Source: a virus (taxonomy: Duplodnaviria; Heunggongvirae; Uroviricota; Caudoviricetes). From it: 64,000 nt of DNA. A model generated the notes under the pieces. It searched no databases. It was not told where the DNA came from and was given only the letters and a program-made list of their open reading frames with translations. The stretch is from the IMG/VR virus record IMGVR_UViG_3300021400_002728, positions 37,154-101,153 of that record, one strand, 5' to 3'. A program made the position numbers and the translations under genes. This document shows, in pieces, positions 13,460 through 61,052 of this stretch (the stretch's first letter is position 1; each line of letters begins with the position of its first letter).

Positions 13460-13495
13460 ATTATATCAAAGATAACTATTTTTGTAAATAGTTAA
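13460..13495 (-). promoter_or_regulatory. Promoter P-f: ACTATTTACA -N17- TATAAT
   Basis: -35 overlaps stop codon of GGDEF gene; 17-bp spacer. Confidence 0.6.
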
Positions 13496-16359: not shown

Positions 16360-16363
16360 TTAC

Positions 16364-29215: not shown

Positions 29216-31417
29216 TTAGGACTTAGTCTCTGCATAGAACATATTTCTAAGAGATACGATATCTCTAGGAATTAAATCTCTCTGCTCCTGATCATATGAG
29301 TTGTAAAGCCTCTGGCAGAAAGCATAGAAGTTATTTGAAAGCTGATTGGTAAGGAATCCAGTTCTGTTAAGCTTACCATACTTAAGAGTTGCCTGAGCAA
29401 CATGTCTCATGCACTTCCAGAAGTTGTAGTAAGCAAGCTTAACCTTAACCATATAACCTGCAGCATCTTCAATTACGAAACCCTCAATGATTCTACCATC
29501 AAATTCATAACCTTCAGCAGTTACTTCATTGTACCAGTCAAAGAACTCTGAGTAAGAATTGATAGTGTATGCCTTAGTCTTAGTCTTAATACCAAGCTCT
29601 CTACCAATGTTAACTACCTGATCATATTCATACTGAGCAAACTTAATATCATTCTTAATGATAGCAAGTAAGAAGAGCTCTGATTCAGGATATTCAATGA
29701 TGTGAGGATCACGCTTCATATCTACATTCTCGAATACGAAAGTTACCTTATCATTCTTTGCAATTTCCTTCATCTTTGCAATAGCTTCAGGAGTCATCTT
29801 AGCATCGATTGCTTCTCTTAACCATACTGAGAATTCACCTTCAGGATTTGACTTAGTAGTTACAAAGAGATCATCAGTTTCTTCATCATATGATACCAGA
29901 CCAAGATAACCATTTTCCTTGACATAACAGGTAACAGGGAAAGTAAGAGTATACTGGAGCATCTCTAACTTAGTCTCAGGTCTCTCATTGATATTGAAGA
30001 ACTTATTAAATCCTCTAGCAACTACATTCATAGTTCTAGTGTTAACATAAAGTCCTCTAGCAACTACAGTCTGGTTATTCCAGATCTTATCAAGGAAAGC
30101 ATCCTTAGTAAAGTTGAAAGATGAGATGTTACCAAACTTCTTCTCCATAATGAATCTGTTCTTTCTCATTGCTTCTACAGTGTCAATAACTGAAAGATCA
30201 AGAGACTGAGATTTTGCTTCAACTGCTTCAGGTTCAGCAAATACTGTGTTCTCAATTTCAACAATGTTGAAACCATTCTTATCGAGTTCTACAACTCTAA
30301 GATTACCACCATATTCAACCTTACCTTCAAGATCAAATACTCTATCTCTTAACTGAGTAGGATCAGTTTTAGTATTTCTGTGACCAAAGATCTGGTACTG
30401 ATTCTCATCAGTAGTAGCCATCCAAGTATCAGCTACCTGCTCATAGTCATTGTACTTACCTACACCATTAATCATCTGACAAGTAGCCATGAAAGTAAGA
30501 TTCTCAGGCATAGTAGCTACACCACCATGAGTAACAAGAATTTCTTTGTCACCATAAGTGTACCAAGCACACTGACCCATCTTTCTGTAAAGCTGACGAA
30601 TCTTTGAAGGATCGATGGCTGCTGCAACAAGCTGGTCCTTAGTCTTAAGTTCAAACTCTTCATTTCTGCTAATACCACCATTTGCATAGATCCAGAAAGA
30701 CTTGTCGTGATTACCTTCAAGAATAAGTACGTTCTTCTTCTGGCAGATATCAATCATGAAGTTCATAACTTCTGCATTTTCGATACCACGATCAAGAAGG
30801 TCTCCTAAGAAGATGTACATATAGTTGTCATTGAGTCCGTCCTTAAGATAAGTCTTAAGAGCAGTGTAACAACCATGAATATCACCAATGTGAATGATCT
30901 TCTCATAGTTAGACATATCGAATCTCTTGATGAACATCTCTTCAAAATGCTCAGGATCGATAACCTTGATACCAGAAGGAATCTTCTGATTCTCAAATCT
31001 TGCATACATCTTATCAATTACTTCTTCAGGAACTCTCTTATATTCATCACGAGAAGCATTGCGTCTCTTACACTCCTCGATAGGAAGCTTAGTAAAGTCA
31101 ATGATGAACATTCTGTAACGATACTGATCACACATCTCCTTATATTTGTTCATCTCTTCAGTCTTAGAATTAGTTGCATCGATTACAGTGAATTCACCAT
31201 GAGACATACGAATGTCAAGCAGCTTGAAGAGCATCTGCCATACATTCTTCTCGTTATTCTGTGAAATTTCAGTAGTACCATAAATATTCTGCTGTGCTGA
31301 CTGACACTGAAGTCTAATCTCATCAGCAGACAAAGCAAAAGGTCTAAGTCCATGCTTATCAATGAACGTAGACTTTCCACAACCAGGTGCTCCTCTGAAA
31401 AGTAAAAGTGATCTCAT
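29216..31417 (-). CDS. Polynucleotide kinase-phosphatase with C-terminal ligase-like domain (bacterial Pnkp-type RNA repair enzyme)
   Basis: P-loop LLFRGAPGCGKST (5' kinase); calcineurin-like phosphoesterase motifs IHIGDIHGCY, LGDLLDRG, GNHD; C-terminal nucleotidyltransferase-like CYVKENGYLG (K-x-N-G motif I). Confidence 0.75.
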   Translation of the reverse strand: MRSLLLFRGAPGCGKSTFIDKHGLRPFALSADEIRLQCQSAQQNIYGTTEISQNNEKNVWQMLFKLLDIRMSHGEFTVIDATNSKTEEMNKYKEMCDQYRYRMFIIDFTKLPIEECKRRNASRDEYKRVPEEVIDKMYARFENQKIPSGIKVIDPEHFEEMFIKRFDMSNYEKIIHIGDIHGCYTALKTYLKDGLNDNYMYIFLGDLLDRGIENAEVMNFMIDICQKKNVLILEGNHDKSFWIYANGGISRNEEFELKTKDQLVAAAIDPSKIRQLYRKMGQCAWYTYGDKEILVTHGGVATMPENLTFMATCQMINGVGKYNDYEQVADTWMATTDENQYQIFGHRNTKTDPTQLRDRVFDLEGKVEYGGNLRVVELDKNGFNIVEIENTVFAEPEAVEAKSQSLDLSVIDTVEAMRKNRFIMEKKFGNISSFNFTKDAFLDKIWNNQTVVARGLYVNTRTMNVVARGFNKFFNINERPETKLEMLQYTLTFPVTCYVKENGYLGLVSYDEETDDLFVTTKSNPEGEFSVWLREAIDAKMTPEAIAKMKEIAKNDKVTFVFENVDMKRDPHIIEYPESELFLLAIIKNDIKFAQYEYDQVVNIGRELGIKTKTKAYTINSYSEFFDWYNEVTAEGYEFDGRIIEGFVIEDAAGYMVKVKLAYYNFWKCMRHVAQATLKYGKLNRTGFLTNQLSNNFYAFCQRLYNSYDQEQRDLIPRDIVSLRNMFYAETKS

Positions 31418-31558: not shown

Positions 31559-32434
31559 TTAGTTGTTGCCATAAAGCAGCTGAGCATATTCTGAATCTTT
31601 GTCAAGAATGATTGTAGAATCGCCATGTGCTAATGCTTCAAGTGAATCAAGACCTCTTACAAAGTTATAAAAATCTGCTTTTTCAGGATCATTATAAGCA
31701 TCAGACAAAATTCTCATGTACTCAGCTTCACCTTCTGCAGTAATCTTTGCTGCTTCAGCTTCAGCATCTGCGATTGTAATGGCTACCTGACGGTCAGTCT
31801 CATTTCTAATCTTACGAGCGTCTGCTTCACCAGTTGCAGTATATCCTGCAGCAATATTATTACGTTCAGAGATCATTCTCTCATAAACTGCATTTTTATT
31901 ATCATCAGGAAGATCAAGTGCTTTAATCTCAGCAAGATCGATTACAATACCATACTGAGAAATATCAGTATTTGCAGCAGTAGTAATCATATTAGTAAGT
32001 GTATTACCTCTTGCAGCAATAATCTCATCCTGAGTCATAGCCGAAATTGTATTCTTAGTTGCGTTATATACCGCAGCTTCAATTCTCTCTTCAGCTCTTG
32101 CCTGTGTAGCACCAACTGTCTGGTAGTACTTAACAGGATCTACTACTGACCAAATAACATAGTCATCAGCGATCATTGATTTCTTATCAGCAGTAATTAC
32201 ATCAGATGCAGGAATATCAAAGAGCATATCACCTGTGTAAACCTTTACAGTACTCTCAATGAATGGAGTATGTAAGTGAAAACCAGTATTTGAAACTACT
32301 TCTTTTGCTCTACCAAGTCGAACAATAATTGCTGTCTCATTGGTACGAACAGTGTACGCGGATGAAAATAACAAGATCAGACCAACGATGAAAAGTAAAA
32401 CTCCGCTAATGGTACCGATAATAAACTTCTTCAT
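31559..32434 (-). CDS. SPFH/band-7 protein, HflC-like
   Basis: N-terminal TM anchor then VRTNETAIIVRLGRAKEVVSNTGFHLHTPFIESTVKVYTGDMLFD...ITADKKSMIADDYVIW (HflC/prohibitin pattern). Confidence 0.75.
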   Translation of the reverse strand: MKKFIIGTISGVLLFIVGLILLFSSAYTVRTNETAIIVRLGRAKEVVSNTGFHLHTPFIESTVKVYTGDMLFDIPASDVITADKKSMIADDYVIWSVVDPVKYYQTVGATQARAEERIEAAVYNATKNTISAMTQDEIIAARGNTLTNMITTAANTDISQYGIVIDLAEIKALDLPDDNKNAVYERMISERNNIAAGYTATGEADARKIRNETDRQVAITIADAEAEAAKITAEGEAEYMRILSDAYNDPEKADFYNFVRGLDSLEALAHGDSTIILDKDSEYAQLLYGNN

Positions 32435-33423
32435 TAGTTTTCACCTCCATTAGTATAGGTATTTGTAGTAGTATTAGCAAATGAATCGAGAGGGTACATA
32501 GTAGATGTAGATCCATCAGTAATAATGATCTTACAATTAGGAAGTACCTCTTCCATCTTCTCATAGAACATTCTCTGTTTAGTTACGAGAGGATAAAGCT
32601 TATACTGCTCATACATCTGATTAAATCTTTCAACCTGACCATTTGCTTCAGCAATTCTTGCAGCTTTTTCAGCTTCAGCTGCCTGAATAACTGCATCGGC
32701 AGAAGCATCTGCAGCAGGAATCTCACTATTCTGATACTGTAATGCATTATTCTTTGCAGTATCTGCACCCTGCTTAGCAGTTTCAACAGATTTGAATGCT
32801 GCAATAATTTCAGCAGTTGGTGGTTCAGAGTCCTGAACTGTAATATTAACTACAGTAAGACCAATATTTCTTCTATCAAGTTCGTTAATCATTGCTTCCT
32901 TGATATCAGCCTGAATCTGACCTTTTCCAGTAGTCATTGCTTCATCAACAGTATAGTTAGAAACTACTGTACGAATATTTGCAAGAGCAATATTTGAAAG
33001 TGTTGTTTCAGGATTAGCTGAATTATAGACATAAGCAACTGGATCAGATACACGATATTCAAGATAGAAATCGATATTCAAAAGGTTGAAATCTGATGTA
33101 ATCATGATACCGTTATCTGTATCTGTGATATTCTGACCATCTTCTGAAACAATATAACCAATTCCAGTACCATGTGTCGTCATATCAACTTTCTTGACAG
33201 ACTGCCAAGGTGCTTTGAAGTAGAATCCAGCAGTATCAACTCTTACGATCGTACCAAACTGTGTAACGATGGCATTATGCTGCTCATCTACTGAGTAGAA
33301 ACATTTAAACAAACATATAATAAGGAAAAGTCCACCAATACATGCGAGTACAATGTTTCTTACTTTCTTTGAGGCATCAAGAACCTCTTTTTCATAAGAA
33401 CTCATTTCATTATTCTTACTCAT
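32434..33423 (-). CDS. SPFH/band-7 protein, HflK-like (start moved to MSKNNEM; AAGGAG-7nt-ATG)
   Basis: TM anchor, SPFH core (DEQHNAIVTQFGTIVRV...), Ala/Gln-rich coiled coil (AAEAEKAARIAEANGQ). Confidence 0.75.
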   Translation of the reverse strand: MSKNNEMSSYEKEVLDASKKVRNIVLACIGGLFLIICLFKCFYSVDEQHNAIVTQFGTIVRVDTAGFYFKAPWQSVKKVDMTTHGTGIGYIVSEDGQNITDTDNGIMITSDFNLLNIDFYLEYRVSDPVAYVYNSANPETTLSNIALANIRTVVSNYTVDEAMTTGKGQIQADIKEAMINELDRRNIGLTVVNITVQDSEPPTAEIIAAFKSVETAKQGADTAKNNALQYQNSEIPAADASADAVIQAAEAEKAARIAEANGQVERFNQMYEQYKLYPLVTKQRMFYEKMEEVLPNCKIIITDGSTSTMYPLDSFANTTTNTYTNGGEN

Positions 33424-33472
33424 CACTGTCTCCTTTACATATAAATACACTCATAATTGAGCATCTATCTAT

Positions 33473-33523: not shown

Positions 33524-34249
33524 TTAGATACGTTCATATTTAGGCATAGGACTTACTTTGTGGAGATTAATTCTATGTCTACGTTCGATATTCTCTTTCT
33601 TATCATTATCATCAATCTCACCAGTTGCAATATAATGATCGAGTTCTGCATAAGTGAAACCGAGATTATCTTCATCAGTCTTGCCACAAAGACCATCAGA
33701 AGGTGTCTTATGTACAAGTTCTGCAGGAAGACCAAGTGCATCACCGATCTGAAGCATTTCAGTTACAGTGAATTCGCAACAAGGACTGAAATCACCAGCA
33801 GAATCACCAAACTTAGTAGAATAACCAACATAATCTTCAGAACAGTTACATGTATTGCACACTCTACCACCTTCAGGAAGAGACTGTGCAATAGCATAAA
33901 GAGTAGTCATACGAAGTCTAGGCGGAATATTTTCTTTGGTTGCTTGAGAAGGATTATCAAGCTGTCCTAAAAGACCCTTGTATGCGTCTGCAATGTTGAT
34001 TGTATAACTTCTAATACCTAACAGATCAATTACTTTCTGGCTATCAGAAATATCTTTCTGTTCTCCATTTGGCATCATAACACCAACAACACGATCTTTA
34101 CCAAGAGCATCTACAAGCAGTTTAGCGATGATTGTTGAGTCCTTACCACCAGAAATACCGATTACTGCACTAGCAGTAGGACCATTCTTTGTGAACCAGC
34201 TTCTTATCCAGCTCTTAATTTCACTAATTTCAAAATTTACATCAAACAT
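33524..34249 (-). CDS. nadE: NH3-dependent NAD+ synthetase
   Basis: PP-loop IGISGGKDSTIIAKL; size 241 aa. Confidence 0.8.
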   Translation of the reverse strand: MFDVNFEISEIKSWIRSWFTKNGPTASAVIGISGGKDSTIIAKLLVDALGKDRVVGVMMPNGEQKDISDSQKVIDLLGIRSYTINIADAYKGLLGQLDNPSQATKENIPPRLRMTTLYAIAQSLPEGGRVCNTCNCSEDYVGYSTKFGDSAGDFSPCCEFTVTEMLQIGDALGLPAELVHKTPSDGLCGKTDEDNLGFTYAELDHYIATGEIDDNDKKENIERRHRINLHKVSPMPKYERI

Positions 34250-34253
34250 ATTA

Positions 34254-35174
34254 TTATGCCTCCTTAAAATGAAGTTTGAGAATGTTTACCACATCTTCTG
34301 ATAATTTATACCATTTATGGTCTTTACCATATCGTTGTGCTATTTCTTTTAATCTATCATCTAATGTAGTGTCTTCTCCAGTTGGACTTACAGTCATATC
34401 GGCATAATTCAGAATAAGCCACTCATTAGTAACGGTAGGAGGAATAGTTCCATGATTTTCAATAAATTCACTATACTTCCAACCATTTAGAATTTCAGCT
34501 CCGACTTTCTCATGATGTTCAGGATCAAATTCATATCCCATATCATGATTCCATCCTAAAGCAAACATTGATCTTGCAAACTGCTCATCATAATCAAGAT
34601 CTTTTGCAGTTTTATATGCTTTACGTGCAACACCTATAATATGATGAAGTCGATCTTCAGTAATCATACTTCTAATGATACCTTTTTCTTCACAGTATTT
34701 ATAAAATGACAGTGCTAACAGATGACGATATTTTAATGGATTCTTACGAATCATGGTACCAGAAATGGGAATATCATTTCTATCTGCTACATAAAACTTA
34801 TGATTAGGATAGAGCTGTTTAATCTTTTCTTCATAAGAAGGTTCACCCATATACCATTTGCATTCAGAATTAGGATCAATACCTGCCTGATCAAATAGTT
34901 CATTACACCATACTCTCCAATTTTCAAGAGTAAATGTACCATCAAGGAAAAGTTTGCTATCATCAATAAGAACAATCTTAACTCGGTCAAACCCTCCAAA
35001 TTCCTGTTTAACTAGCTCATATCTAGTTCTAAAAGGAATGAAGTCTTTTCCTCGATCATTATCAAAGCCACAAACTCCAATGACTACTTCATCATTTTCA
35101 GCCAAGGCTTTGTATATCAATGAAGTATGACCTGTATGCATAGGTATATAACAACCAAAAGTTATTCCTACCAT
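34254..35174 (-). CDS. Nicotinate/nicotinamide mononucleotide adenylyltransferase (NadM/NadR-type) fused to a C-terminal HD-like domain
   Basis: (H/T)xGH motif CYIPMHTGHTSLI; ISGTMIR (SxTxxR) motif; C-terminal HHIIGVA...HDMGY. Confidence 0.7.
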   Translation of the reverse strand: MVGITFGCYIPMHTGHTSLIYKALAENDEVVIGVCGFDNDRGKDFIPFRTRYELVKQEFGGFDRVKIVLIDDSKLFLDGTFTLENWRVWCNELFDQAGIDPNSECKWYMGEPSYEEKIKQLYPNHKFYVADRNDIPISGTMIRKNPLKYRHLLALSFYKYCEEKGIIRSMITEDRLHHIIGVARKAYKTAKDLDYDEQFARSMFALGWNHDMGYEFDPEHHEKVGAEILNGWKYSEFIENHGTIPPTVTNEWLILNYADMTVSPTGEDTTLDDRLKEIAQRYGKDHKWYKLSEDVVNILKLHFKEA

Positions 35175-35183
35175 TTGATCTCC

Positions 35184-35690
35184 TTAGATTACATCTACCT
35201 GGAAAGTTTTCATTGCATCGATTGCAGTCTTGTGAGTATCAGGAGTTACACAAGCACAAAGTCTCTCGATTACCTTAACAGTAGTCTCAGGACAGAATGC
35301 TTTAGCAAGTGCTACATTGCTGATTACACAGATTCCAGTACATACACCACAGAACTCAACATAGTCGAAACCATTGTTCTTGATGTAGTTAGCGAGATCT
35401 ACACTACCGAAAGTAGGTTTATTGAAGATATTTGCATTTGCAGGAACATCGATTCCATCAACGATCTGCCATCCTTCAGTACCTTCAATACAGTGAACAA
35501 CTGGAAGCTTGCTACCTTCCTGAGTCTCCATATAGTTAGGCTGGTGAGTATCTCTTGTAAAAACTACTTCTCCGTCAAAATTCTTTACGTAGTCATTGAT
35601 ATCACCAACGATCTTCTGTGCTTCTGTATTTGCAAGAGCTCCAGTAACGAAGTCATTCTGCATATCTACAACAACTAAAAGTTTCTTCAT
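35184..35690 (-). CDS. pncA: Nicotinamidase (isochorismatase family)
   Basis: LLVVVDMQNDF N-terminus; catalytic Cys context FCGVCTGICVISN; Lys in middle. Confidence 0.75.
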   Translation of the reverse strand: MKKLLVVVDMQNDFVTGALANTEAQKIVGDINDYVKNFDGEVVFTRDTHQPNYMETQEGSKLPVVHCIEGTEGWQIVDGIDVPANANIFNKPTFGSVDLANYIKNNGFDYVEFCGVCTGICVISNVALAKAFCPETTVKVIERLCACVTPDTHKTAIDAMKTFQVDVI

Positions 35691-35722
35691 ATAAGTTTCT
35701 CCTTTATAATTGATTTTATATT

Positions 35723-35758
35723 ATTATAACATGCTACAATACACTTGTAAATAGTTTT
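35723..35758 (-). promoter_or_regulatory. Promoter P-j: AAAAACTATTTACA -N17- TATAAT
   Basis: Family member heading the helicase / NAD operon. Confidence 0.6.
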
Positions 35759-36063
35759 TAGTATCTAGATGCAATACCTGTTACTAACTCATCTAATTCT
35801 CTGAAGAACCTGTCTTGAGAATCTTCCCATTTATTTTCAAGCTGTTCTGAATATGTAGCAACTTCACCGCCACAATCATATTCTACATATATAAATACTT
35901 CACCAGTTTCTATACTAACTGCTACCCAACCATAATAAATACTTGGGAACTTAACACATTTTTCATATACTCGTTCTAACTCACCAGTAACACTACGATG
36001 CTCGTATTTGAAACCATGTTTAGTGAGTATATTATCTCTATTTTCTACACTTAATATACCCAT
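35758..36063 (-). CDS. Hypothetical protein
   Basis: ORF track; ATG overlaps stop of upstream zinc-ribbon ORF (TAATG). Confidence 0.45.
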   Translation of the reverse strand: MGILSVENRDNILTKHGFKYEHRSVTGELERVYEKCVKFPSIYYGWVAVSIETGEVFIYVEYDCGGEVATYSEQLENKWEDSQDRFFRELDELVTGIASRY

Positions 36064-36239
36064 TATTCTTCTTTCTCCTTTTTCATAATTTTACCACAAA
36101 CTGGACACTTATCTGGCCTAATTTCAGTTCCATGAGAATTTATAGGTGCGTCTGTTTTACATGAGGCACATCTATATCTATAAAAATCATTATCTCCAAA
36201 ATTTTTACAGTACTCTTCCCAATAACTAGTATTTTCCAT
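36063..36239 (-). CDS. Small zinc-ribbon protein (58 aa), below ORF-track size cutoff
   Basis: Own translation MENTSYWEEYCKNFGDNDFYRYRCASCKTDAPINSHGTEIRPDKCPVCGKIMKKEKEE; CxxC...CxxC; GGAG SD; TAATG coupling to next gene. Confidence 0.5.
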   Translation of the reverse strand: MENTSYWEEYCKNFGDNDFYRYRCASCKTDAPINSHGTEIRPDKCPVCGKIMKKEKEE

Positions 36240-36247
36240 AATATCTC

Positions 36248-37612
36248 CTATTTATGTTTAGCATAAAATTCCTTAAATCGTTCAAATGTACTATCCATAC
36301 ACATTAAGAACTTAACTATATCTGGATCTGTCTTAACATGTATGGCTCTAAGTTTTTGACCATTAACTGGTTGAATATAAATCTTTTCTAGAGTCTTACA
36401 TCTAGATAAAGCTACATACAATTGTCCAGGACTCCAAATTTCTGGAATAAGATTCATCTGATCATAAGTCTGTCCTTGACTTTTATGAATAGTAATTGCA
36501 TACGCTATCTTAAATGGAAACTGAGTAATAGAACCAATCTGCTTTTCAATAACTCTACCTTCAATTACTTCATACTCATAGAATTTCTGAGTAAAAGGTT
36601 CTACAGTAATAAGATTACCATTATCTAACTGTATTTCTACTTTTTGTTTTCTAGTATAGACTTTAGTAATAGTACCAAGTGATCCGTTGATATATGCATG
36701 ACTTTCATTATCATTTATGAGCATAACTACTCGTGCATTAACTGCATAGTTTAACTCATCTACAAATGTAGTTTGGCTCATATCAACTTTACCATATCTT
36801 TCGGCATAGTTAGTATGACTTCTTGCTAAACCTTTCATACATTCAAGATTCTTTTCTTCTGCAGTCGCATTAGTACCACATAACCAAATTCCATTAGGAA
36901 TAATTTCCTGAGCAGAATTAGAATTAAGATATGGAAGATCTTCTTTTTTACCAATTTTAATATTATCAAGTGCGTCGCAGAACTTAGAATCAGACTGTCT
37001 CATCTGCTGTCTAAGTACTAATGGAATAAACTTATATTCAGGCCAATAATGTGAATGGAAACAATATCCATTTCCCATATCTTTACCAGTAATCTTTTTA
37101 TATGTTGCTGCATCATCAGGTCTAACTACAGGTGGCAACTGACTAAAATCTCCAGCAAGAATAACCATAATAGGTTTCTTACCATAAGATTCTCTATATT
37201 CGTTAGCTCTCTCAATATTTGACATTACATTATCAAAGACATCTATTCTTGCCATAGATATTTCTTCAATAAGACACACATCTACATATTGTATCATATC
37301 AATACAATTGTCTTCTTGTTTATCGTCAAGATCTTCAGAAACGACATGAGTAGGAACTTTAAATAATCTATGAATAGTCATTCCACCAACATTAATTGCA
37401 GCCACGCCAGTAGGTGCAACTTTAACTAAGTTGATATTATTAAGTCTACAAAAATCAGACCAGGTTCTAATAAGATAACTTTTTCCTACACCAGCATCAC
37501 CAGTAATGAAGAAATGTCTACCATTATTATAACCCCAAAGCATCATATCAAAGATTAACGACTGATCATCATTTAATGTGTTGTATGTATCTGGGTACTT
37601 ATAACTTCGCAT
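36248..37612 (-). CDS. SF1B DNA helicase, Pif1/RecD/Dda-like
   Basis: Walker A FFITGDAGVGKSY; C-terminal ITIHKSQGQTYDQ motif typical of RecD/Pif1 family. Confidence 0.8.
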   Translation of the reverse strand: MRSYKYPDTYNTLNDDQSLIFDMMLWGYNNGRHFFITGDAGVGKSYLIRTWSDFCRLNNINLVKVAPTGVAAINVGGMTIHRLFKVPTHVVSEDLDDKQEDNCIDMIQYVDVCLIEEISMARIDVFDNVMSNIERANEYRESYGKKPIMVILAGDFSQLPPVVRPDDAATYKKITGKDMGNGYCFHSHYWPEYKFIPLVLRQQMRQSDSKFCDALDNIKIGKKEDLPYLNSNSAQEIIPNGIWLCGTNATAEEKNLECMKGLARSHTNYAERYGKVDMSQTTFVDELNYAVNARVVMLINDNESHAYINGSLGTITKVYTRKQKVEIQLDNGNLITVEPFTQKFYEYEVIEGRVIEKQIGSITQFPFKIAYAITIHKSQGQTYDQMNLIPEIWSPGQLYVALSRCKTLEKIYIQPVNGQKLRAIHVKTDPDIVKFLMCMDSTFERFKEFYAKHK

Positions 37613-37623
37613 TTATTCAACCT

Positions 37624-37905
37624 CTATTTCTGATCTCTACCTATATGATAACCAGTACAGTAAGCACATTTATATACACTAAATGGTGTACCAAATTTTC
37701 TTTCTAAGGCTTCTGCTGCTTTATAGGCAGTTTCTTTGGTATTATAGACTTGCTTATCTTTACCTACATTCTTATGCATATTAGTATGTGAGTTTATGCT
37801 AAAAATTCCAAGTGCATTGTGTGTGATAAATATATTTCGAAAAGCACCCTTAAGTCTAATTTGAAACCAAATAGCTTTAAACATTTCTTTTATTTTTATT
37901 TTCAT
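37624..37905 (-). CDS. Hypothetical protein with C-terminal Cys cluster
   Basis: ORF track; YKCAYCTGYH. Confidence 0.4.
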   Translation of the reverse strand: MKIKIKEMFKAIWFQIRLKGAFRNIFITHNALGIFSINSHTNMHKNVGKDKQVYNTKETAYKAAEALERKFGTPFSVYKCAYCTGYHIGRDQK

Positions 37906-37917
37906 TGTACATCTCCC

Positions 37918-38595
37918 TTAATAACCAAATACCTTGTTACAAATATCTTCGACTTTGTCAAGATCAAACCAGTTATCAGTTCTTACACCAGATTCCATAT
38001 CTAACCAGTAATCCTTTTCCCAAAGAATATCGATCTCTTCTTTCTTTTCAAGAATATTTTCTGGAGTAAGACCACCAGCAAAACCTTGATAGTCAACTCC
38101 TTCAAAATAGTCAAATTCTACCTGAAGTCCTTTACCACCAGAATTATCTGATAAAAAGACTATATTATCAAGATTAGCTTCTCTAAACTTCTCATATGTC
38201 TGTTTAGATTTAGGCTCACTTAAATTTGTCTGAATAATAATTTGTTTGCCACACGTATCAGTAATAAGATCTTTAAATCGTGATCCAACTACATTGAGTT
38301 GAATACGATCAAACATATCAAAATACTGATCAACAAACTTCTTAACTTCATCAAAATTACCTGATTGACATACAGATCTAGCTAAGCCACCACAAATATG
38401 TAATGACAAATTGATATTTTTATTTTTTAACTTCTGAAGTAAGATAAGAGACGGATATCGATTATTCTGATTTGTACCTGTTATAGAACTTGAACAAAGA
38501 AAACCAAATTCTGCTTCAGGATATTTCTCAGCAATCTTTAAAAGTCGATCAATATCTGTTTTCTTATCAATACCAATAAATGAAACTCGGATCAT
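37918..38595 (-). CDS. TrpF-like (phosphoribosylanthranilate isomerase fold) TIM-barrel protein
   Basis: MIRVSFIGID (cf. MVRVKICGIT), GGKGLQVEFDYF (cf. GGSGKTFDW), FAGGLTPENI (cf. LSGGLNPENV), LDMESGVRTD...KV (cf. VDVSSGVE...KD). Confidence 0.55.
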   Translation of the reverse strand: MIRVSFIGIDKKTDIDRLLKIAEKYPEAEFGFLCSSSITGTNQNNRYPSLILLQKLKNKNINLSLHICGGLARSVCQSGNFDEVKKFVDQYFDMFDRIQLNVVGSRFKDLITDTCGKQIIIQTNLSEPKSKQTYEKFREANLDNIVFLSDNSGGKGLQVEFDYFEGVDYQGFAGGLTPENILEKKEEIDILWEKDYWLDMESGVRTDNWFDLDKVEDICNKVFGY

Positions 38596-38604
38596 AAAAA
38601 CTCC

Positions 38605-39120
38605 TTAAATCTTAATTAACTTCGTTACATCACCTTTAAGTGCAAAGATAATGTAGTTCTCACCATCCCAGAAATTAGTAATCTGAGTAATAGTTTTCCA
38701 TCCATACTCACTTGCATTAGGGAATTCCATTCTATTCCACTGAGCCTCAAGTTTGTCTTCAGGAACATGTCTTCTACGAAGCCTATTACCTTCAAAACAC
38801 TTTTCCTTGGGTGCAGTTACCCATATACAATGATGGTCAAATCCATTGAACCATTCAATAAACTGACGTCTTTGACTAACAGTTAGTGCGTTAGTGGTAA
38901 GAATAACATCCTTATCTTCTAACATACTCTGATGTATATCTTGATATAATTTAATCCATACATCAAAATAATTAGAACGGTCACATTCATCACCATTAAT
39001 TAACTCATAATATTTATCAACATCATATATAACAAGATGTGGATTCTTTTTGACTATACGCTCAGTAAGTACAGTTTTACCTCCACCACTGATTCCACAT
39101 ACTAAATAAAAATTTGCCAT
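38605..39120 (-). CDS. P-loop kinase resembling nicotinamide riboside kinase (Nrk/NadR-RNK-like)
   Basis: FYLVCGISGGGKTVLTERIVKKNPHLVIYDVDKYY parallels Nrk1 FIIGISGVTNSGKTTLAKNLQKHLPNCSVISQDDFF; later EKCFEGNRLRRRH (cf. EECKRRRSTR). Confidence 0.5.
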   Translation of the reverse strand: MANFYLVCGISGGGKTVLTERIVKKNPHLVIYDVDKYYELINGDECDRSNYFDVWIKLYQDIHQSMLEDKDVILTTNALTVSQRRQFIEWFNGFDHHCIWVTAPKEKCFEGNRLRRRHVPEDKLEAQWNRMEFPNASEYGWKTITQITNFWDGENYIIFALKGDVTKLIKI

Positions 39121-39138
39121 ATCATAGTCTCTCTTTCA

Positions 39139-40005
39139 TTAATCAAATGCTTTATCATAAAAAGACAGATGATCTATTTTTGATAGCGCATATATAAATG
39201 ATAAAGAAAATTCGTAATCTCTGTTATCAAATCGGGATTCCCATTCTTTTCTCCATTCTTCTTTTGTCTTATTATTCTTTCTTATTATATCAGCTTTTTC
39301 TTGATATATACTTTCTGCATATTCATCAATGTCAGCAAATCCTTCTGCCTGGTATTCTTTTATAGCATTTCCATTTTCATCTAGTATCTTACATGAAAAG
39401 TTAACTGATTCTGTTGACCATGCTGTGGTATTGAGCTGCAATATCATATCTTTTGCATTTGCTCTTTTTAAGATGTCTCTAAATTCTTCCTTAAAGATGT
39501 TTAAATCAACATCTCTATAAATTAGTATATCACCAATTTGAATTTGTTTTCCATCTACCGCAAATCCAAAATCAGTAACAGGAGAATAACAGAATTGTTC
39601 TGTAATTTCTTTTAAGGAAGCTGTATTTTCTAACTCATATACAAATCCTTCTCTTATAATCAACTCTTTGAACCTATTATAAAATGCAGTGTAATCATAG
39701 AAATTATTATCTGGAATACGATCCTGGATATTCAAATCTTGATCCAAATACAAAAAATTAAAATAAAATCGTGCATTCTTCTGTGGAATACAACAGAGCA
39801 TAATATATTTTACGGTAGCTAAGTTCTTTTCTTTTATATGCCGCCATGTCATGTTTGCGTAAAATCCACCACATGATAGACAATCTTCGTATGTTCCAGA
39901 TCCTATATCAAACATAAAATACTGAGCATTAGTAAATATTTTGTCATTATCGTCATATTCAAGATATGTTCGTTGTTCATCATATTTCTTTTCTGTAATT
40001 TTCAT
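39139..40005 (-). CDS. Hypothetical protein
   Basis: ORF track. Confidence 0.5.
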   Translation of the reverse strand: MKITEKKYDEQRTYLEYDDNDKIFTNAQYFMFDIGSGTYEDCLSCGGFYANMTWRHIKEKNLATVKYIMLCCIPQKNARFYFNFLYLDQDLNIQDRIPDNNFYDYTAFYNRFKELIIREGFVYELENTASLKEITEQFCYSPVTDFGFAVDGKQIQIGDILIYRDVDLNIFKEEFRDILKRANAKDMILQLNTTAWSTESVNFSCKILDENGNAIKEYQAEGFADIDEYAESIYQEKADIIRKNNKTKEEWRKEWESRFDNRDYEFSLSFIYALSKIDHLSFYDKAFD

Positions 40006-40017
40006 ATTTGCTCCTTT

Positions 40018-40407
40018 TTATATCTTGAAATACTCAAAGAACTTGTCTTTATCTAATACATAAATATGAGATGACCAGTCATCATCTGTTGCATACTTTT
40101 GAACTGCTATAGGACATTCACATACAGCGTCAAAATTTTCTTTAAGCCAATCAAATACATACTGGTTGGCACCATTCCATATATACTTGACATATTCAGG
40201 CATAGGAAATTTAGTTGCTAAAACTTTTAGACATTCAAGAAGTGTAAGTTTTCCATAACCATGATGCTGATGATTCTTTTCAGTATACCAAGAAGAAATT
40301 GTCCATGTATCAAGATCTCTAGATATAGTACACTTACAAACTTCCTCATCATAGATATGAGCAGTTGTTGTAAATGAATTGTTGTTTTGATTATTAGAAA
40401 ACCACAT
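40018..40407 (-). CDS. Hypothetical protein, possibly GNAT-like acetyltransferase
   Basis: HQHHGYGKLTLLECL resembles GNAT motif A; weak. Confidence 0.3.
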   Translation of the reverse strand: MWFSNNQNNNSFTTTAHIYDEEVCKCTISRDLDTWTISSWYTEKNHQHHGYGKLTLLECLKVLATKFPMPEYVKYIWNGANQYVFDWLKENFDAVCECPIAVQKYATDDDWSSHIYVLDKDKFFEYFKI

Positions 40408-40438
40408 GCTATAATAACCTCCATTATTTTATAAGATT

Positions 40439-40474
40439 ATTATAACATGTGTTTTGATCTATGTAAATAGTTTA
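40439..40474 (-). promoter_or_regulatory. Promoter P-k: AAACTATTTACA -N17- TGtTATAAT
   Basis: Family member. Confidence 0.6.
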
Positions 40475-40482
40475 TAAGAAAA

Positions 40483-40498
40483 GGAGCTCTATAGCTCC
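40483..40498 (-). terminator. GGAGCT-CTAT-AGCTCC perfect hairpin followed by UUUUCUU on minus RNA; terminator after 40508..40783, abutting promoter P-k
   Basis: Seen in sequence. Confidence 0.55.
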
Positions 40499-40507
40499 AA
40501 TTCTTTG

Positions 40508-40783
40508 TTACTGATCTTCTGAATATATTGTTATATTACCATCTGTGTCATATACTGGACATAGGGTATGATTATACATCGAATCAAGATAATAATACAT
40601 CACCTTTGTGTCTTTGTCATATACTATATATAATGTTCCATATTCTGGATTATTTCTAGTTTCAATTACTACAAATTTATCATAAAATACATTATGATTA
40701 TCTGTATCTATAGTTGTTTTGCATCCAGTTAAAAAACAAAACAAGAAGCAAGTAATAATGATTGCAAACAGAGTCTTTTTCAT
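40508..40783 (-). CDS. Small secreted lipoprotein
   Basis: MKKTLFAIIITCFLFCFLTGC lipobox. Confidence 0.55.
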   Translation of the reverse strand: MKKTLFAIIITCFLFCFLTGCKTTIDTDNHNVFYDKFVVIETRNNPEYGTLYIVYDKDTKVMYYYLDSMYNHTLCPVYDTDGNITIYSEDQ

Positions 40784-40794
40784 ATATTTACCTC

Positions 40795-42030
40795 TTAATA
40801 AATAACTACGACTGTTCCAACTTCAACTGCATCGTATAATTCATAAGAAAAATCAAGTGGAAGGTTAATACATCCATGAGAACCATTTGTAAGATAAGTC
40901 TCAGGATTTTCAAAATCTGATGCAGGTCTCCAAGTAGCGTCATGAAGTCCATGTCCGCGCTCAGTAAATCGCATCCAGTTCTTTCCAGAAAGACCACCAT
41001 CAAATGCAATTCCATGAAACATACTAGAAATCTGATATACACCTATAGGTGTATCAGTTATATCAAGTTTTCCAGTAACTACTTTAGATTTAAGCTTAAG
41101 CTCTCCATCTACATAATACCAAAGATATTGATCTTTAATAGATATCTCAATAAATGTATTAGGAATTTCAAACATATATGGATGTGCGAGTTTATACTCT
41201 TTGAATTCCTCTCTATTTACAAATTCAGATTCATTATCTACAAGAAGAATAGGTACTCTATTTGTTTCAGACTTGAGTGAGCAAATCTTATCTTTGATAT
41301 AGAGATATTCTTTCTGAAAATCTACTCTATTTCCATAAGTACTTATACAATAGCAATCTTCAGCTGATTTTATATATACAAGACCATTAACTGGTGAGTT
41401 GAACTCCCATGTATTGTAGTATGTATTATAACTATCAGTCTTCTCTTTTACGATCTCTGCAACTTTTGCATTAAACTCATCTGAGGTAAAATCAGTTGTG
41501 ATGGTATTATCACTAACTGTGATGAAATCTTTTAGATCATAAATATTGATACACTGATTAGATGAATACTGAATGCTAAAATTAACATAAGGACTAATAA
41601 TTTCTACTAGTCTTTCATATTCAGATGAAGGACCATTATCAATTGACTTATAGTCTATTACGTCAATAGTAGACTTAGGTGTAGCAGCCTTAATAGCATT
41701 GTAAAGAGCGTCAATATCAATTTCATTACCATCCTGATAGTTAGTAACTCTTAATCCCGCATCATCAAAAACAATAGTAGGATAAATACTTTTACTTCTA
41801 CCAAGGTTGACCTTCTTAAGTTCTTCCTTAGTTACGGTATTCTTATCTATCTCAAATACATTATTGCCACTAACTACATTAACGGTTGTGCAGATAGGCT
41901 CAGCAATAACTTCTGATGCAGTATTTGGATTAGCACTAACATCTGTAGCACATGCAGCAATTGATAGAATGCCAGTAATGAATAAAATAATCATTATAAA
42001 AGGAAAAGCAAGTTTATTTATGTGTCTCAT
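40795..42030 (-). CDS. Lipoprotein with C-terminal L,D-transpeptidase (YkuD) catalytic domain
   Basis: Signal/lipobox (SIAAC); catalytic signature HG...NGSHGCINLP near C-terminus. Confidence 0.7.
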   Translation of the reverse strand: MRHINKLAFPFIMIILFITGILSIAACATDVSANPNTASEVIAEPICTTVNVVSGNNVFEIDKNTVTKEELKKVNLGRSKSIYPTIVFDDAGLRVTNYQDGNEIDIDALYNAIKAATPKSTIDVIDYKSIDNGPSSEYERLVEIISPYVNFSIQYSSNQCINIYDLKDFITVSDNTITTDFTSDEFNAKVAEIVKEKTDSYNTYYNTWEFNSPVNGLVYIKSAEDCYCISTYGNRVDFQKEYLYIKDKICSLKSETNRVPILLVDNESEFVNREEFKEYKLAHPYMFEIPNTFIEISIKDQYLWYYVDGELKLKSKVVTGKLDITDTPIGVYQISSMFHGIAFDGGLSGKNWMRFTERGHGLHDATWRPASDFENPETYLTNGSHGCINLPLDFSYELYDAVEVGTVVVIY

Positions 42031-42059
42031 CTTATCTCCTTAAAAATTATTATGGATTT

Positions 42060-42095
42060 ATTATAAACTAAATTTTTAATAATGTAAATAGTTTT
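42060..42095 (-). promoter_or_regulatory. Promoter P-l: AAAAACTATTTACA -N17- TATAAT
   Basis: Family member. Confidence 0.6.
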
Positions 42096-42319
42096 TACAA
42101 CCGATTATTCCAAAGTCTTAAAGCTTCCTTATTCAAATATTCTCTAATAATTTGATGCTCTTCTACCGATATACTAAATCCATCAATTCGTTTAGAAACA
42201 AGTGGACCTCGTGTATGGCACCTATTACATCTACCACTTGCCTTCATCTGATTATAAGATTCATTAAATTGAATTTTTACTTTATTGCTTCCACAGAATG
42301 GACAACTTAACTGATCCAT
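42095..42319 (-). CDS. Lar-family restriction alleviation-like zinc-finger protein (start moved to MDQLSCPFCG; AAGGAG-7nt-ATG)
   Basis: N-terminal CPFCGSNKV plus second CxxC (CNRCH), about 75 aa. Confidence 0.5.
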   Translation of the reverse strand: MDQLSCPFCGSNKVKIQFNESYNQMKASGRCNRCHTRGPLVSKRIDGFSISVEEHQIIREYLNKEALRLWNNRL

Positions 42320-42320
42320 A

Positions 42321-43040
42321 CTATATCTCCTTTTCATAATAAGGTGTCTCACCTGCCCAAAAATGTTCATCTATTGCAGATAAATCTATGGCTCCATTTG
42401 AAATTATCCAAGATTCTCTGTCAAAATCATATCTAAAACTGTATATTTCCATTTGATCTATAATTTGACCATCTTTAATCTTACATAGTAATACAGCCTT
42501 TCGTTCTAGTTCATCAATATATCTTTCTTTTGTAGCGACTGGATGAGTTATTATATATGATACATTTTCATCGTTAATAAATTTCTTAAGATTATCTATA
42601 TCAATAATACAACCACAATTAATAAAATTATATTCGTCGTCATCAAATATATCAGATATCATATATTCATGTAATCTATCACTAATAGTATCGTTATAAG
42701 TTTCTATTACTTTATCATATATGTGTAACTTCCAAAATCTATAAAATAACGTTATCATAGACATTATTGCATAACCAATAAAAATAATAGCAAATATTTT
42801 TCCTATAATACTAGGTATAGCTAATAAGAACATTCCGATGAATATTGATACCGTCGCATATATTGGATTATACCAACATAAATCATCATATGTATAATCA
42901 TATATTTTATCTCGTTTATTCTTTATATCTAACACTTCTTGATATGTTGGTTCTTTACGTATTTCTTCAATTCGATTTTTAGCAAGTTCTCTTAATACAT
43001 CAGGATCAGTTTTAGGCATTATTATTTTAGTAATTTTCAT
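42321..43040 (-). CDS. Hypothetical two-TM membrane protein (start moved to MKITKII; AGGAGAA SD)
   Basis: Track start lies inside terminator hairpin; internal ATG has SD. Confidence 0.5.
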   Translation of the reverse strand: MKITKIIMPKTDPDVLRELAKNRIEEIRKEPTYQEVLDIKNKRDKIYDYTYDDLCWYNPIYATVSIFIGMFLLAIPSIIGKIFAIIFIGYAIMSMITLFYRFWKLHIYDKVIETYNDTISDRLHEYMISDIFDDDEYNFINCGCIIDIDNLKKFINDENVSYIITHPVATKERYIDELERKAVLLCKIKDGQIIDQMEIYSFRYDFDRESWIISNGAIDLSAIDEHFWAGETPYYEKEI

Positions 43041-43059
43041 ATTGTATTCTCCTAGAAAA

Positions 43060-43091
43060 AGAGGCACCGCTTAAATGTAAACGGCACCTCT
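43060..43091 (-). terminator. 10-bp RNA hairpin (two G-U pairs) followed by UUUUUCU on minus RNA; terminator after pncB-like gene
   Basis: Seen in sequence (AGAGGUGCCG...CGGUGCCUCU). Confidence 0.55.
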
Positions 43092-43117
43092 ATAGTAAAT
43101 AGTAGATTGATAATTAC

Positions 43118-44335
43118 TTACTTCTCATTAGTAAGTCTCCAGTTGATACATCTCTTAAGATACTCAACATATTCAGGATTCTTGCACATTCCCTTGCCTT
43201 CAACATCAGAGATTTTAGCAACATCCATACCGTTACAAGCAGTAGTCTTCATTACGATATTGAGAGGTTCTACATCTGTATCGTTAGCGATGTAAGTACC
43301 AATACCGAATGCAACCTTTGCCTTTCCATTAAAGTGTCTTACAATCTTATCTGCCTTTTCGAAGTTAAGGCTATCAGAGAAGAGAAGTGTCTTGGTCTTA
43401 GGATCAATACCAAGTTTCTGATAGTGAGCGATCATCTTCTCACCCCATTCGATAGGATCACCAGAGTCATGACGAACACCACTAAAGAGAGTAGAGAATG
43501 TAAGATCAAAATCTCTAAGGAAACAATCAGTAGTGATTGCATCAGTAAGAGCAGTTCCGTTAAGTACTCCGTATTCCTTAACCCATGCGCTAAGCGCGTA
43601 GTAGTTAGAGTATGCCGGATTATGCTTATGATCTCCCTGACCTACACACATGATCCACTCGTGGGCCATGGTACCGACAGGCTTTACACCGAACTTCTTA
43701 GCAAGATATACATTAGAAGTTCCAACGAAGTGGCTTGCACTGTGCATTGTATCATTGAGGTGACTGAACTTCTGAATTGCAAGTTCCTGTGCCTCAGCAG
43801 AAAGTCTACGTCTAAGACCGAATTCAGAGAATACTCCAAGGTACCACTTACCGTGTTTTACATTCTCGAATTTCTCATCAAGACGTCTCTTAAAACTCTC
43901 AATGAGCTGATCATAATCGTAATTCATTCTGAAGTAAACTTCATTTACGATTGCGAGAGTAGGGATCTCATACATAGAAGTATTCAACCAAGTTCCCTTA
44001 GTTTCGATTGCAAGTCCACAATCAGCATCAGTAGTGATCTCGAAATCTTCAAATCTAGGCTTCCAGATTCTAAGGAAATCGATGTAGCTGCCCTTGAACC
44101 AAGGAATATTATCAAGATATTCAAGCTCATCTTCTTCAAATCGAAGATTACAATAAGCTTTGATCTGGTCCTTGATCTCCTGAACCATTTCCGGAGTGAA
44201 CTTTACGTCTTTATTTCTACATTTGAATGTCCAAGTAGTCTTATAGGATGGGAACTGATGGTAGATGGCCTGGCCCATAGAAAACTTGTAAAGATCAGTT
44301 TCGAGTAGACTTACGATAATTGGATTGAGTTTCAT
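43118..44335 (-). CDS. pncB: Nicotinate phosphoribosyltransferase
   Basis: N-terminus MKLNPIIVSLLETDLYKFSMGQAIYHQFP matches NAPRTase family start (TDxYKxTM); 405 aa. Confidence 0.8.
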   Translation of the reverse strand: MKLNPIIVSLLETDLYKFSMGQAIYHQFPSYKTTWTFKCRNKDVKFTPEMVQEIKDQIKAYCNLRFEEDELEYLDNIPWFKGSYIDFLRIWKPRFEDFEITTDADCGLAIETKGTWLNTSMYEIPTLAIVNEVYFRMNYDYDQLIESFKRRLDEKFENVKHGKWYLGVFSEFGLRRRLSAEAQELAIQKFSHLNDTMHSASHFVGTSNVYLAKKFGVKPVGTMAHEWIMCVGQGDHKHNPAYSNYYALSAWVKEYGVLNGTALTDAITTDCFLRDFDLTFSTLFSGVRHDSGDPIEWGEKMIAHYQKLGIDPKTKTLLFSDSLNFEKADKIVRHFNGKAKVAFGIGTYIANDTDVEPLNIVMKTTACNGMDVAKISDVEGKGMCKNPEYVEYLKRCINWRLTNEK

Positions 44336-44518: not shown

Positions 44519-44554
44519 ATTATAACAAGAAATGTTTGCTTTGTAAATAGTTTT
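44519..44554 (-). promoter_or_regulatory. Promoter P-m: AAAAACTATTTACA -N17- TGtTATAAT
   Basis: Family member. Confidence 0.6.
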
Positions 44555-45700: not shown

Positions 45701-45946
45701 CTATAAAAGTCTATCTCGTATATCGTTTGTAGTTATTTTACACCTTCTAAGTGCATTTTTAATGGTAGTATTTTTATATTCAATACTAGCTTTTCTATCA
45801 CGTAAAATACTTACAATAGAAAATAACTGTATAAATCGTTCATCTTTATTATCAAATATTTCAAATTTACTTGGATCATCAGATAATAGATTGGTTTCAA
45901 TAGTTCCTTTATGAACAACTATTGAGAATTTATCATTAATTTGCAT
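45701..45946 (-). CDS. Hypothetical protein (start moved to MQINDKF; AGAAGGA SD)
   Basis: Track ORF overlaps upstream gene by 119 nt; internal start with SD reduces overlap to 11 nt. Confidence 0.4.
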   Translation of the reverse strand: MQINDKFSIVVHKGTIETNLLSDDPSKFEIFDNKDERFIQLFSIVSILRDRKASIEYKNTTIKNALRRCKITTNDIRDRLL

Positions 45947-46430
45947 CTTCCATCCTTCTATAATGCTGCCAACCAGTTTTTTCGCATTCAGCACAAAAAC
46001 TATATGAACTACTTGATACATGTACACATCGTCCACAATCAGGTTCTTCATCATCAGCAGTATAAATCTTCTGCTTTATTACATGTACATCTAGGTTATT
46101 GTCTCTAGCTAAGTTAATCATATGATTGGTACCTTTAGATGTACCATCCCAAAATGCAAATAATACATCCGCATACTTAGCCATTTGTTCGTTACGTAGA
46201 TATCCGGCTCTTTTTCCGTACTGATTCCAATCTGCAGGAAACTTAGCAAGCTTTAAACCATACTTCTCTGCAAACTGAATACCGAGTGTATCTGCGCCTT
46301 TAGCACAACCACTAACTATTTCTACATCTGCTCTATGAAGTCCATTGGCCTTAAAATACATCATTAGTTCATATTCAACTTTTTCAAAGTTAGTATAGTC
46401 TCTTGAACCTGCTACAATAACTTTTATCAT
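45936..46430 (-). CDS. SLOG-family (YspA/DUF2493-like Rossmann) protein with C-terminal zinc ribbon
   Basis: VIVAGSRDYTNFE...VEIVSGCAKGADTLGIQFAEKYG...FPADWNQYGKRAGYLRNEQM pattern of YspA/DprA-like SLOG domains; CGRCV...CAEC at C-terminus. Confidence 0.5.
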   Translation of the reverse strand: MIKVIVAGSRDYTNFEKVEYELMMYFKANGLHRADVEIVSGCAKGADTLGIQFAEKYGLKLAKFPADWNQYGKRAGYLRNEQMAKYADVLFAFWDGTSKGTNHMINLARDNNLDVHVIKQKIYTADDEEPDCGRCVHVSSSSYSFCAECEKTGWQHYRRMEDAN

Positions 46431-61016: not shown

Positions 61017-61052
61017 ATTTTAACACAATATATTTATTTTGTAAATAGTTTT
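61017..61052 (-). promoter_or_regulatory. Promoter P-s: AAAAAACTATTTACA -N17- TGtTAAAAT
   Basis: Family member. Confidence 0.55.

Follow-up and report, generated by a model that had tools for sequence, protein, structure and literature searches.

Does a phage carry the means to restore the NAD+ of the cell that it infects, and from which precursors would it do so? We addressed this question for a stretch of viral DNA of 64,000 nucleotides (positions 37,154 to 101,153 of IMG/VR record IMGVR_UViG_3300021400_002728; here called the window), which is part of a jumbo phage of ~394 kb and carries a cluster of genes related to NAD+ salvage. An original prediction had named six such genes, and all six open reading frames (ORFs) are present on the minus strand exactly where it had placed them. 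NAD+ depletion is among the commonest bacterial abortive-infection strategies. We consider it reasonably probable that the phage carries a modular NAD+ salvage island that maintains or rebuilds the NAD+ of the infected cell, with resistance to NAD+-depleting defence as the likeliest selective reason.

Searches with profile hidden Markov models (HMMs) bore out the predicted NadE, PncB, PncA and adenylyltransferase, but supported neither the kinase nor the TrpF-like protein as members of known salvage families. The NAD synthetase matched PF02540 (3e-49) and TIGR00552 (160.6 bits against a cutoff of 63.65); its PP-loop, SGGKDS, is of the SGGxDS type, and the protein has no glutaminase domain. The nicotinate phosphoribosyltransferase (NAPRTase) scored well above the cutoffs of NF003704 (486.6 bits against 379) and TIGR01514 (421.2 against 269.55) and contains both NAPRTase domains, PF17767 and PF04095. 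The nicotinamidase has the isochorismatase fold (PF00857, 7e-27, 95 bits against a cutoff of 27). Its residues D9, K91 and C121, and D47, H49 and H66, align with those that form the catalytic triad and the metal site, respectively, of P. horikoshii PncA (1ILW/1IM5), a signature of nicotinamidases; both sites are intact.

The fourth protein (34254..35174, 306 residues) had been described as an adenylyltransferase for nicotinamide mononucleotide (NMN) or nicotinate mononucleotide (NaMN) fused to an HD-like domain. Its first half is a nucleotide adenylyltransferase of the NadR type: it matched CTP_transf_like (2e-7), the NadR NMN adenylyltransferase (NMNAT) domain TIGR01526 (8e-22 over residues 2-151) and phrog_3462 (2e-27), its best PDB match is L. 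lactis NadR (6GYE, 4e-22), and the motifs HTGH (HxGH) and ISGTMIR (ISSTxxR) are present. The TIGR01526 score lies under the full-length cutoff because the protein lacks the C-terminal kinase (RNK) domain of NadR. NadD models were weak or gave no match, the NadR models being best. The HD half is weak when taken alone, with HD and HDIG matches under their cutoffs, a visible H...HD motif and no match of the isolated domain in the PDB; it is homologous to stand-alone HD genes, being 67% identical to one in the related viral contig L001 and 57% identical to one in L192, whose copy passes PF01966. Both stand-alone genes follow an adenylyltransferase gene; the fusion therefore unites two conserved neighbours that were joined recently. 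The aRES phosphatases, considered as a clue to the HD domain, were set aside as they turned out to be Macro-domain proteins.

The position of the adenylyltransferase in other phages ties it to PncB and NadE. Orthologues with 51-52% identity are the second of two adenylyltransferases in L169, L173 and L186, where they lie between PncA and PncB in the position of NadD. In the 467-kb phage L073, an orthologue is fused in frame to NadE (15676-16917, 413 aa), which connects the final two pathway steps by a Rosetta-stone argument. The placement in the NadD slot and this fusion support the view that the enzyme works with PncB and NadE.

From these assignments we infer the following pathway, in which the substrates of the adenylyltransferase, NadE and the kinase are deduced from family membership and gene context. 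PncA would deamidate nicotinamide to nicotinate, from which PncB would form NaMN with phosphoribosyl pyrophosphate (PRPP); the NadR-type adenylyltransferase would convert NaMN to nicotinate adenine dinucleotide (NaAD), and NadE would amidate NaAD to NAD+. In a parallel branch, the polynucleotide kinase (PNK)-like kinase most likely phosphorylates the 5'-OH of nicotinamide riboside (NR) to yield NMN, which the same adenylyltransferase would turn into NAD+; the kinase would stand in for the kinase domain of NadR, and the HD phosphohydrolase would be an accessory to the adenylyltransferase. The predicted complete Preiss-Handler route holds on paper, as PncA, PncB, an adenylyltransferase and NadE are all encoded, provided that the adenylyltransferase takes NaMN or that NadE acts earlier as an NMN synthetase.

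The clustering of these genes is conserved and exceeds what chance would produce. In 80 viral loci fetched through PncB (L-numbers denote viral loci or contigs), NadE was found within 10 kb in 78 and PncA in 65. IMG/VR contigs commonly carry sets of PncA, PncB, NadD and NadE; L010, the single typical contig of ~150 kb that we inspected, encodes PncA, a small radical-SAM protein, DUF5662, PncB, a NadD-like enzyme and NadE, and with them the canonical four-enzyme Preiss-Handler set. The richest modules (L169, L173, L174 and L186) run in the order NrtR-like Nudix protein, small radical-SAM protein, NadR-type adenylyltransferase 1, PnuC, kinase, PncA, NadR-type adenylyltransferase 2, PncB and NadE, L186 ending within PncB. 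Genes for an NrtR-like Nudix/winged-helix protein, for the small radical-SAM protein (175-214 aa) and, in ~150-kb phages, for the DUF5662 protein are thus found among related NAD clusters (L169, 5413-6702; L171, 4854-5399 and 8862-9566; L173; L186; L010, 8811-9999); all three are absent from the window. PncB is rare among deposited phage genomes, with 13 records out of 50,697. One cultured jumbo phage, Atu_ph07, encodes PncB near an ADP-ribose (ADPR) pyrophosphatase, with a weak partial PncA-like match ~4 kb away and no clear full set.

The kinase had been likened to nicotinamide riboside kinases by its N-terminus. That resemblance comes down to the P-loop: similarity to NRK1 was restricted to residues 7-51 (E 0.03), comparison with the Nrk1/NMRK family revealed neither full-length homology nor NRK1 as the closest fold, no homology to the NadR kinase domain (AAA_28) was detected, and the protein belongs to no known NR-kinase family. 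Pfam gave only the generic AAA_33 above cutoff, and the best PHROG was annotated 'polynucleotide kinase'. A profile of the family matched PSTK (4e-8), Pnkp and T4 PNK along its entire length, and the closest fold, the P-loop lysine, an aspartate after strand 2 and lid arginines likewise identify a PNK/PSTK-like P-loop kinase. In the alignment, the invariant residues K15, D35 and R115/R117 coincide with catalytic residues of 5'-OH kinases; D35 corresponds to the aspartate that follows strand 2 in the kinase domain of Pnkp and is presumably catalytic there. The family also has invariant motifs of its own, NGDE and VW. Descent from the kinase domain of the window's own Pnkp-Rnl protein by duplication was considered and rejected, as the two share no significant similarity.

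This kinase family comprises 130 members with 40-100% identity, and it is almost absent from bacteria and archaea (~185,000 species genomes). Conserved at 57-70%, the kinase adjoins NAD genes in 11 distinct contexts and keeps this neighbourhood through several rearrangements and at identities as low as 42%. In five non-identical contigs the gene directly before it encodes the NR importer PnuC, at a distance of 3-16 bp in L169, L172, L173 and L174; in L167 an 80-aa ORF lies between the two genes, and in L186 they are ~520 bp apart. Because the row of NadR-type adenylyltransferase, PnuC and kinase resembles the phage NAD+ reconstitution pathway NARP3 with its RNK domain replaced, phosphorylation of NR (or of nicotinate riboside, NaR) is most likely its function. 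The predicted NR entry point is plausible on the strength of this conserved PnuC adjacency in relatives, and not through the N-terminal resemblance first cited for it. A recurring neighbour is orf129, homologues of which (40-47% identical) lie beside the kinase or PncB in five loci (L167, L170, L171, L176 and L177); it had no HMM match and contains a stretch, HQHHGYGK, that we take to be reminiscent of an acetyltransferase motif.

The TrpF-like protein, which had been counted among the salvage genes, does have the (beta/alpha)8 TrpF fold with C-terminal phosphate-binding motifs, but cannot be counted as a salvage enzyme. Its D150 aligns with D126 of the T. maritima enzyme, presumably the general acid; the general base, which we take to be a cysteine in strand 1, was not found, strand 1 reading SFIGID or TFTGID with a cysteine in 0 of 20 members, so that the catalytic pair is incomplete. 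None of the >85 loci examined contains trp genes, and we know of no NAD salvage route that uses a TrpF-like enzyme. The family is large (239 proteins on ~200 IMG/VR contigs), and in 78 of 80 of its loci neither a NAD gene nor a kinase is close by and no partner is conserved. Genes for HMUDK, DNMK, MazG or methylases adjoin some other members, and de novo clustering of the neighbours produced no conserved partner, the best cluster being an unannotated 207-aa ORF in 12 of 78 loci. Only a close subfamily (56-64% identity; the window, L073, L087, L167/L193 and L192) is always next to a NAD gene. An exact-word scan of viral contigs had found none of these close relatives, and an alignment-based scan was needed to find them; a search of BFVD with the structural model returned noise alone.

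Positions of the features in the window (minus strand throughout)
Feature	Position	Strand	Remarks
NadE, single-domain NH3-dependent NAD+ synthetase	33524..34249	-	241 aa; PF02540, TIGR00552, PP-loop SGGKDS
HD-domain phosphohydrolase, fused to adenylyltransferase	34257..34667	-	residues ~170-306; weak HD/HDIG, H...HD motif
NadR-type nucleotide adenylyltransferase domain	34695..35174	-	residues 1-160 of 306-aa protein; TIGR01526, phrog_3462, 6GYE
PncA nicotinamidase	35184..35690	-	168 aa; PF00857, triad, metal site
Promoter-like site upstream of PncA-NMNAT/HD-NadE	35723..35751	-	AAAAACTATTTACA-N17-TATAAT
TrpF-fold TIM-barrel protein	37918..38595	-	membership of NAD module uncertain
Phage-specific PNK/PSTK-like P-loop kinase	38605..39120	-	171 aa; candidate nicotinamide-riboside kinase
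orf129, first gene of kinase transcription unit	40018..40407	-	recurring neighbour
Promoter-like site upstream of orf129-orf288-kinase-TrpF-like (PRAI-like)-orf93-Pif1	40439..40467	-	AAAAACTATTTACA-N17-TATAAT family
Terminator-like hairpin directly after PncB	43060..43091	-	14-bp stem
PncB nicotinate phosphoribosyltransferase	43118..44335	-	405 aa; NF003704, TIGR01514, PF04095 + PF17767
Promoter-like site upstream of PncB	44519..44547	-	AAAAACTATTTACA-N17-TATAAT family
Promoter-like -35 hexamer starts	6397, 13176, 13488, 25114, 31478, 33501, 35751, 40467, 42088, 44547, 45238, 46760, 48690, 58959	-	
Further extended-motif promoter match	61040-61051	-	

A promoter-like family of the form AAAAACTATTTACA-N17-TATAAT has 13 exact core matches in the window, against 0.1 expected, all of them intergenic and on the coding strand. 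It probably defines the transcription units of the region, and by these signals the NAD genes would form three units under one promoter class.

Several observations weigh against the reading of a salvage island with two entry points. NadR-family adenylyltransferases prefer NMN, which makes the NaMN step of the pathway an assumption. A tblastn search of the window for PnuC was negative, and neither a Nudix gene nor a second adenylyltransferase is present there. The kinase is by homology closest to RNA/DNA 5'-kinases, and in L170 it follows a component of an ECF-type transporter and not PnuC, a caveat to the NR-kinase role. In one jumbo phage (L192, 3223-4860), an orthologue with 70% identity is fused to an Aldolase_II-like protein of ~370 aa. 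The closest relative, L001, is without the block of orf129, orf288, kinase and TrpF-like gene. Because the promoter type is common to many unrelated neighbours, the NAD genes show no specific co-regulation; they are also interleaved with unrelated genes, such as those for a Pif1 helicase and a YkuD transpeptidase.

Two side observations concern these relatives. At the position of the missing block, L001 retains a Pif1-matching remnant of 34 residues (13013-13114), which gives the block the look of an insertion/deletion cassette. Stand-alone Aldolase_II-like genes lie near the kinase in L167 (4509-5609) and L170 (6291-6932), and the window has no such gene; orf288 was tried as the corresponding partner and rejected, since it has no similarity. 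The fusion and these neighbours hint at sugar-phosphate chemistry tied to the kinase.

A counter-defence purpose of the island is plausible by analogy, and its main rival is general metabolic support, in which the same enzymes would supply NAD+ for the replication of a large phage and for NAD+-consuming enzymes, or serve in a host without salvage. We regard this as possible, though on the unlikely side. Li et al. 2024 (PMC11662467) stress NAD+-consuming phage enzymes and the complementarity of phage and host pathways, and the sharing of one general promoter class by NAD genes and unrelated neighbours fits such a role. So does the NAD+-consuming RNA 2'-phosphotransferase Tpt1/KptA (1e-53) that is encoded immediately upstream of the NAD cluster in the related phage L073 (8527-9081). 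No NAD+-consuming enzyme was found, however, among the ~45 window ORFs scanned; the analogous pathways NARP2 and NARP3 have been shown to be counter-defence; and related modules carry the NrtR-like regulator, whose family is annotated as a repressor responsive to ADPR, a product of NADases.

A second alternative concerns the kinase and the TrpF-fold protein, which might belong to another process, either RNA/DNA 5'-end phosphorylation or a sugar-phosphate pathway with the Aldolase_II-like partner, and might sit in the island solely through the shared ancestry of a phage clade. The kinship of the kinase with Pnkp, PSTK and T4 PNK, its Aldolase_II-like fusion and neighbours, the ECF-type transporter component in L170 and the TrpF-like loci devoid of NAD genes or a conserved partner all speak for it. 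We nevertheless find this doubtful, because the kinase stays by NAD genes through several rearrangements and at low identity, its spacing from PnuC is tight in four of the contigs, and the close TrpF-like subfamily always adjoins a NAD gene in five genomes despite differing gene orders.

The order of the last two steps can also be read differently. As in Francisella, NadE might act as an NMN synthetase on NaMN, and the NadR-type enzyme would then adenylylate NMN, so that both routes would converge on NMN. The NadR-type character of the adenylyltransferase fits this order, and so does the second-best PDB match of NadE, 3FIU, which we take to be the Francisella NadE enzyme, an NMN synthetase. 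De Ingeniis et al. 2012 described NadE in this role where NadD has been replaced. The best match of NadE is, however, the archaeal-type 2E18, and the archaeal NadE that has been tested amidates strictly NaAD. Because the orthologous NadE of L010 (50-56% identity) is paired with a NadD-like enzyme, implying a conventional NAD synthetase in this one contig, we favour adenylylation followed by amidation and hold the Francisella-like order to be unlikely; the NMNAT::NadE fusion of L073 is compatible with either.

The assignment to a jumbo phage follows from three lines of evidence: genes of phage type (topoisomerase II subunits, a UvsX-like recombinase, DnaB helicase, primase and split RNA-polymerase beta/beta' pieces), the occurrence of exact window proteins on a metagenomic contig of 394,232 bp, and synteny with the IMG/VR viral contigs L001 (332 kb) and L073 (467 kb). 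The G+C content is 33%, and nearly all long ORFs lie on one strand. Although the PncB, PncA and NadE families are typically bacterial and a megablast of the island against GenBank phages revealed no close relative, an origin from bacterial or plasmid DNA or from a mis-binned host fragment is hardly credible in view of this evidence and of the single-strand gene array, which includes a Pnkp-Rnl fusion. The phage likely comes from a gut or rumen.

How does the island compare with known systems? Phage NAD+ reconstitution has been established experimentally as counter-defence for NARP1, NARP2 and NARP3, and the island corresponds to none of the three. Searches of the island ORFs with Pfam, PHROGs and NCBIfam found no domains of the PRPP-synthetase-like Adps and Nampt-like Namat of NARP1, and PncB is a true NAPRTase. 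NARP2 (Nampt + Nmnat; Osterman et al.) is represented by an adenylyltransferase only, since PncB, an NAPRTase equivalog, is the sole phosphoribosyltransferase. Like NARP2, the island would rebuild NAD+ from nicotinamide and PRPP whatever the fate of ADP-ribose; unlike NARP2, it replaces the single Nampt by PncA, PncB and NadE, at the cost of two more enzymes and more ATP. NARP3 (PMC13464706) pairs PnuC with a bifunctional NadR-like NMNAT/RNK enzyme. The island shares with it the NadR-type adenylyltransferase and, by our reading, a branch from NR through NMN to NAD+, and in relatives (L169, L173, L186 and others) NMNAT, PnuC and kinase stand in a row. It differs from NARP3 in that the NMNAT has no RNK domain, the kinase is a separate PNK/PSTK-like protein, PnuC is missing from the window and the branch is joined to a deamidated nicotinamide route.

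Bacterial NrtR-controlled regulons (pncA-pncB, nadD-nadE and pnuC-nadR; Rodionov et al. 2008, PMC2330246) use the same enzyme families, and related phage modules carry an NrtR-like gene; the island, unlike these regulons, is phage-borne, condensed in one place and built with non-orthologous parts, namely the PNK-like kinase and the NadR-type enzyme in the NadD position. The kinase in turn has C. thermocellum Pnkp, T4 Pnk and archaeal PSTK as its closest relatives in fold and sequence, with the P-loop lysine, the aligned aspartate and the arginine motif retained; unlike them it stands alone, has its own invariant motifs, has no phosphatase or ligase domain and lies in NAD clusters beside PnuC.

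The suggestion that such a set may be undescribed is incorrect, because complete Preiss-Handler clusters of gut jumbo phages, and the counter-defence idea with them, were published by Li et al. 2024 (Microbiome, PMC11662467). Their 174 gut 'NAD-jumbo phages' carry complete salvage or Preiss-Handler pathways, clustered pncB-nadD-nadE among them; phage pncA is mentioned, and a defence against Sir2-type NAD+ depletion is proposed. The island agrees with these clusters in its place in a jumbo phage, in its likely animal-gut setting, in its clustered pncB, adenylyltransferase and nadE, in pncA and in the counter-defence hypothesis, and both are known from genes alone. It departs from the example in their text, which has NadD, by its NadR-type adenylyltransferase fused to an HD domain, and from their clusters by its spread over three transcription units and its additional phage-specific kinase and TrpF-fold protein. 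Three features are new: the NadD slot is taken by a NadR-type adenylyltransferase (HD-fused, or NadE-fused in a relative), a phage-specific kinase of the PNK-like type is the probable NR kinase, and the TrpF-fold partner is peculiar to the clade.

The Osterman preprint on NARP1 and NARP2 and the NARP3 paper make no mention of PncA or NadE, and the abstract of the aRES preprint treats an extended NARP1 only and not a PncA/NadE route. Our literature search found no paper that tests the deamidated PncA/PncB/NadE route against NADase immunity, and no experimental 'NARP4' or phage PncA. None of the three proven reconstitution pathways runs through the deamidated Preiss-Handler route, and the island with its relatives forms a defined, clonable gene set for asking whether this route beats NADase immunity and escapes ADP-ribose-modifying defences. 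The phage-only kinase family is a candidate for a non-orthologous NR kinase, and the analysis highlights a widespread phage TrpF-fold enzyme. Should the counter-defence role fail, the island would be one more case of the reported 'NAD-jumbo phage' metabolism.

We advance a bolder reading only tentatively, as one that may well not hold: the kinase would represent a new phage-restricted family of nicotinamide/nicotinate riboside kinases, which has taken the place of NadR's own kinase domain, and the island would combine a split NARP3-like branch with a deamidated nicotinamide branch as a fourth solution to NAD+ reconstitution. Such a solution would be indifferent to the fate of ADP-ribose, for example to aRES-type ADPR-1''-phosphate, because it needs only nicotinamide or the riboside, PRPP and ATP. 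In a further step, the TrpF-fold barrel, the HD hydrolase and the occasional Aldolase_II-like and SLOG/deoxyribosyltransferase-like neighbours would process a phosphoribosyl by-product.

The genes around the island add some minor observations. Adjoining it (29216-31417, minus strand) is a gene for one 733-aa protein that combines a PNK-like kinase, a calcineurin-type phosphoesterase and a T4 Rnl1-type RNA ligase; this Pnkp-Rnl fusion is a complete RNA-repair enzyme of the kind that phages deploy against tRNA-cleaving defences, and it suggests that the region is rich in counter-defence. A PADLOC scan of the unknown proteins of the island returned nothing relevant. Two adjoining SPFH/Band-7 membrane-scaffold genes (31559-33450, minus strand), 69-73% conserved in L073, lie between the RNA-repair gene and NadE. 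The YkuD-type L,D-transpeptidase (40795-42030, minus strand; 79% in L001) has an N-terminal hydrophobic segment and is encoded mid-island, between PncB and the kinase block.

Near the NAD genes, the window also encodes a YAcAr protein of the SLOG superfamily or a related one (45936-46430, minus strand). Proteins of this kind recur in relatives, with YpsA directly after the TrpF-like gene in L073 (13390-13854) and a nucleoside-deoxyribosyltransferase-like protein beside PncA in L192 (4887-5351); SLOG and related domains are predicted to bind or process nucleotide-derived ligands. Farther away, a serpin, a GGDEF diguanylate cyclase and a BspA-type leucine-rich-repeat protein (9324-10712, 13492-14547 and 25187-26218, respectively, all on the minus strand) are of the host-manipulation type that is typical of gut jumbo phages.

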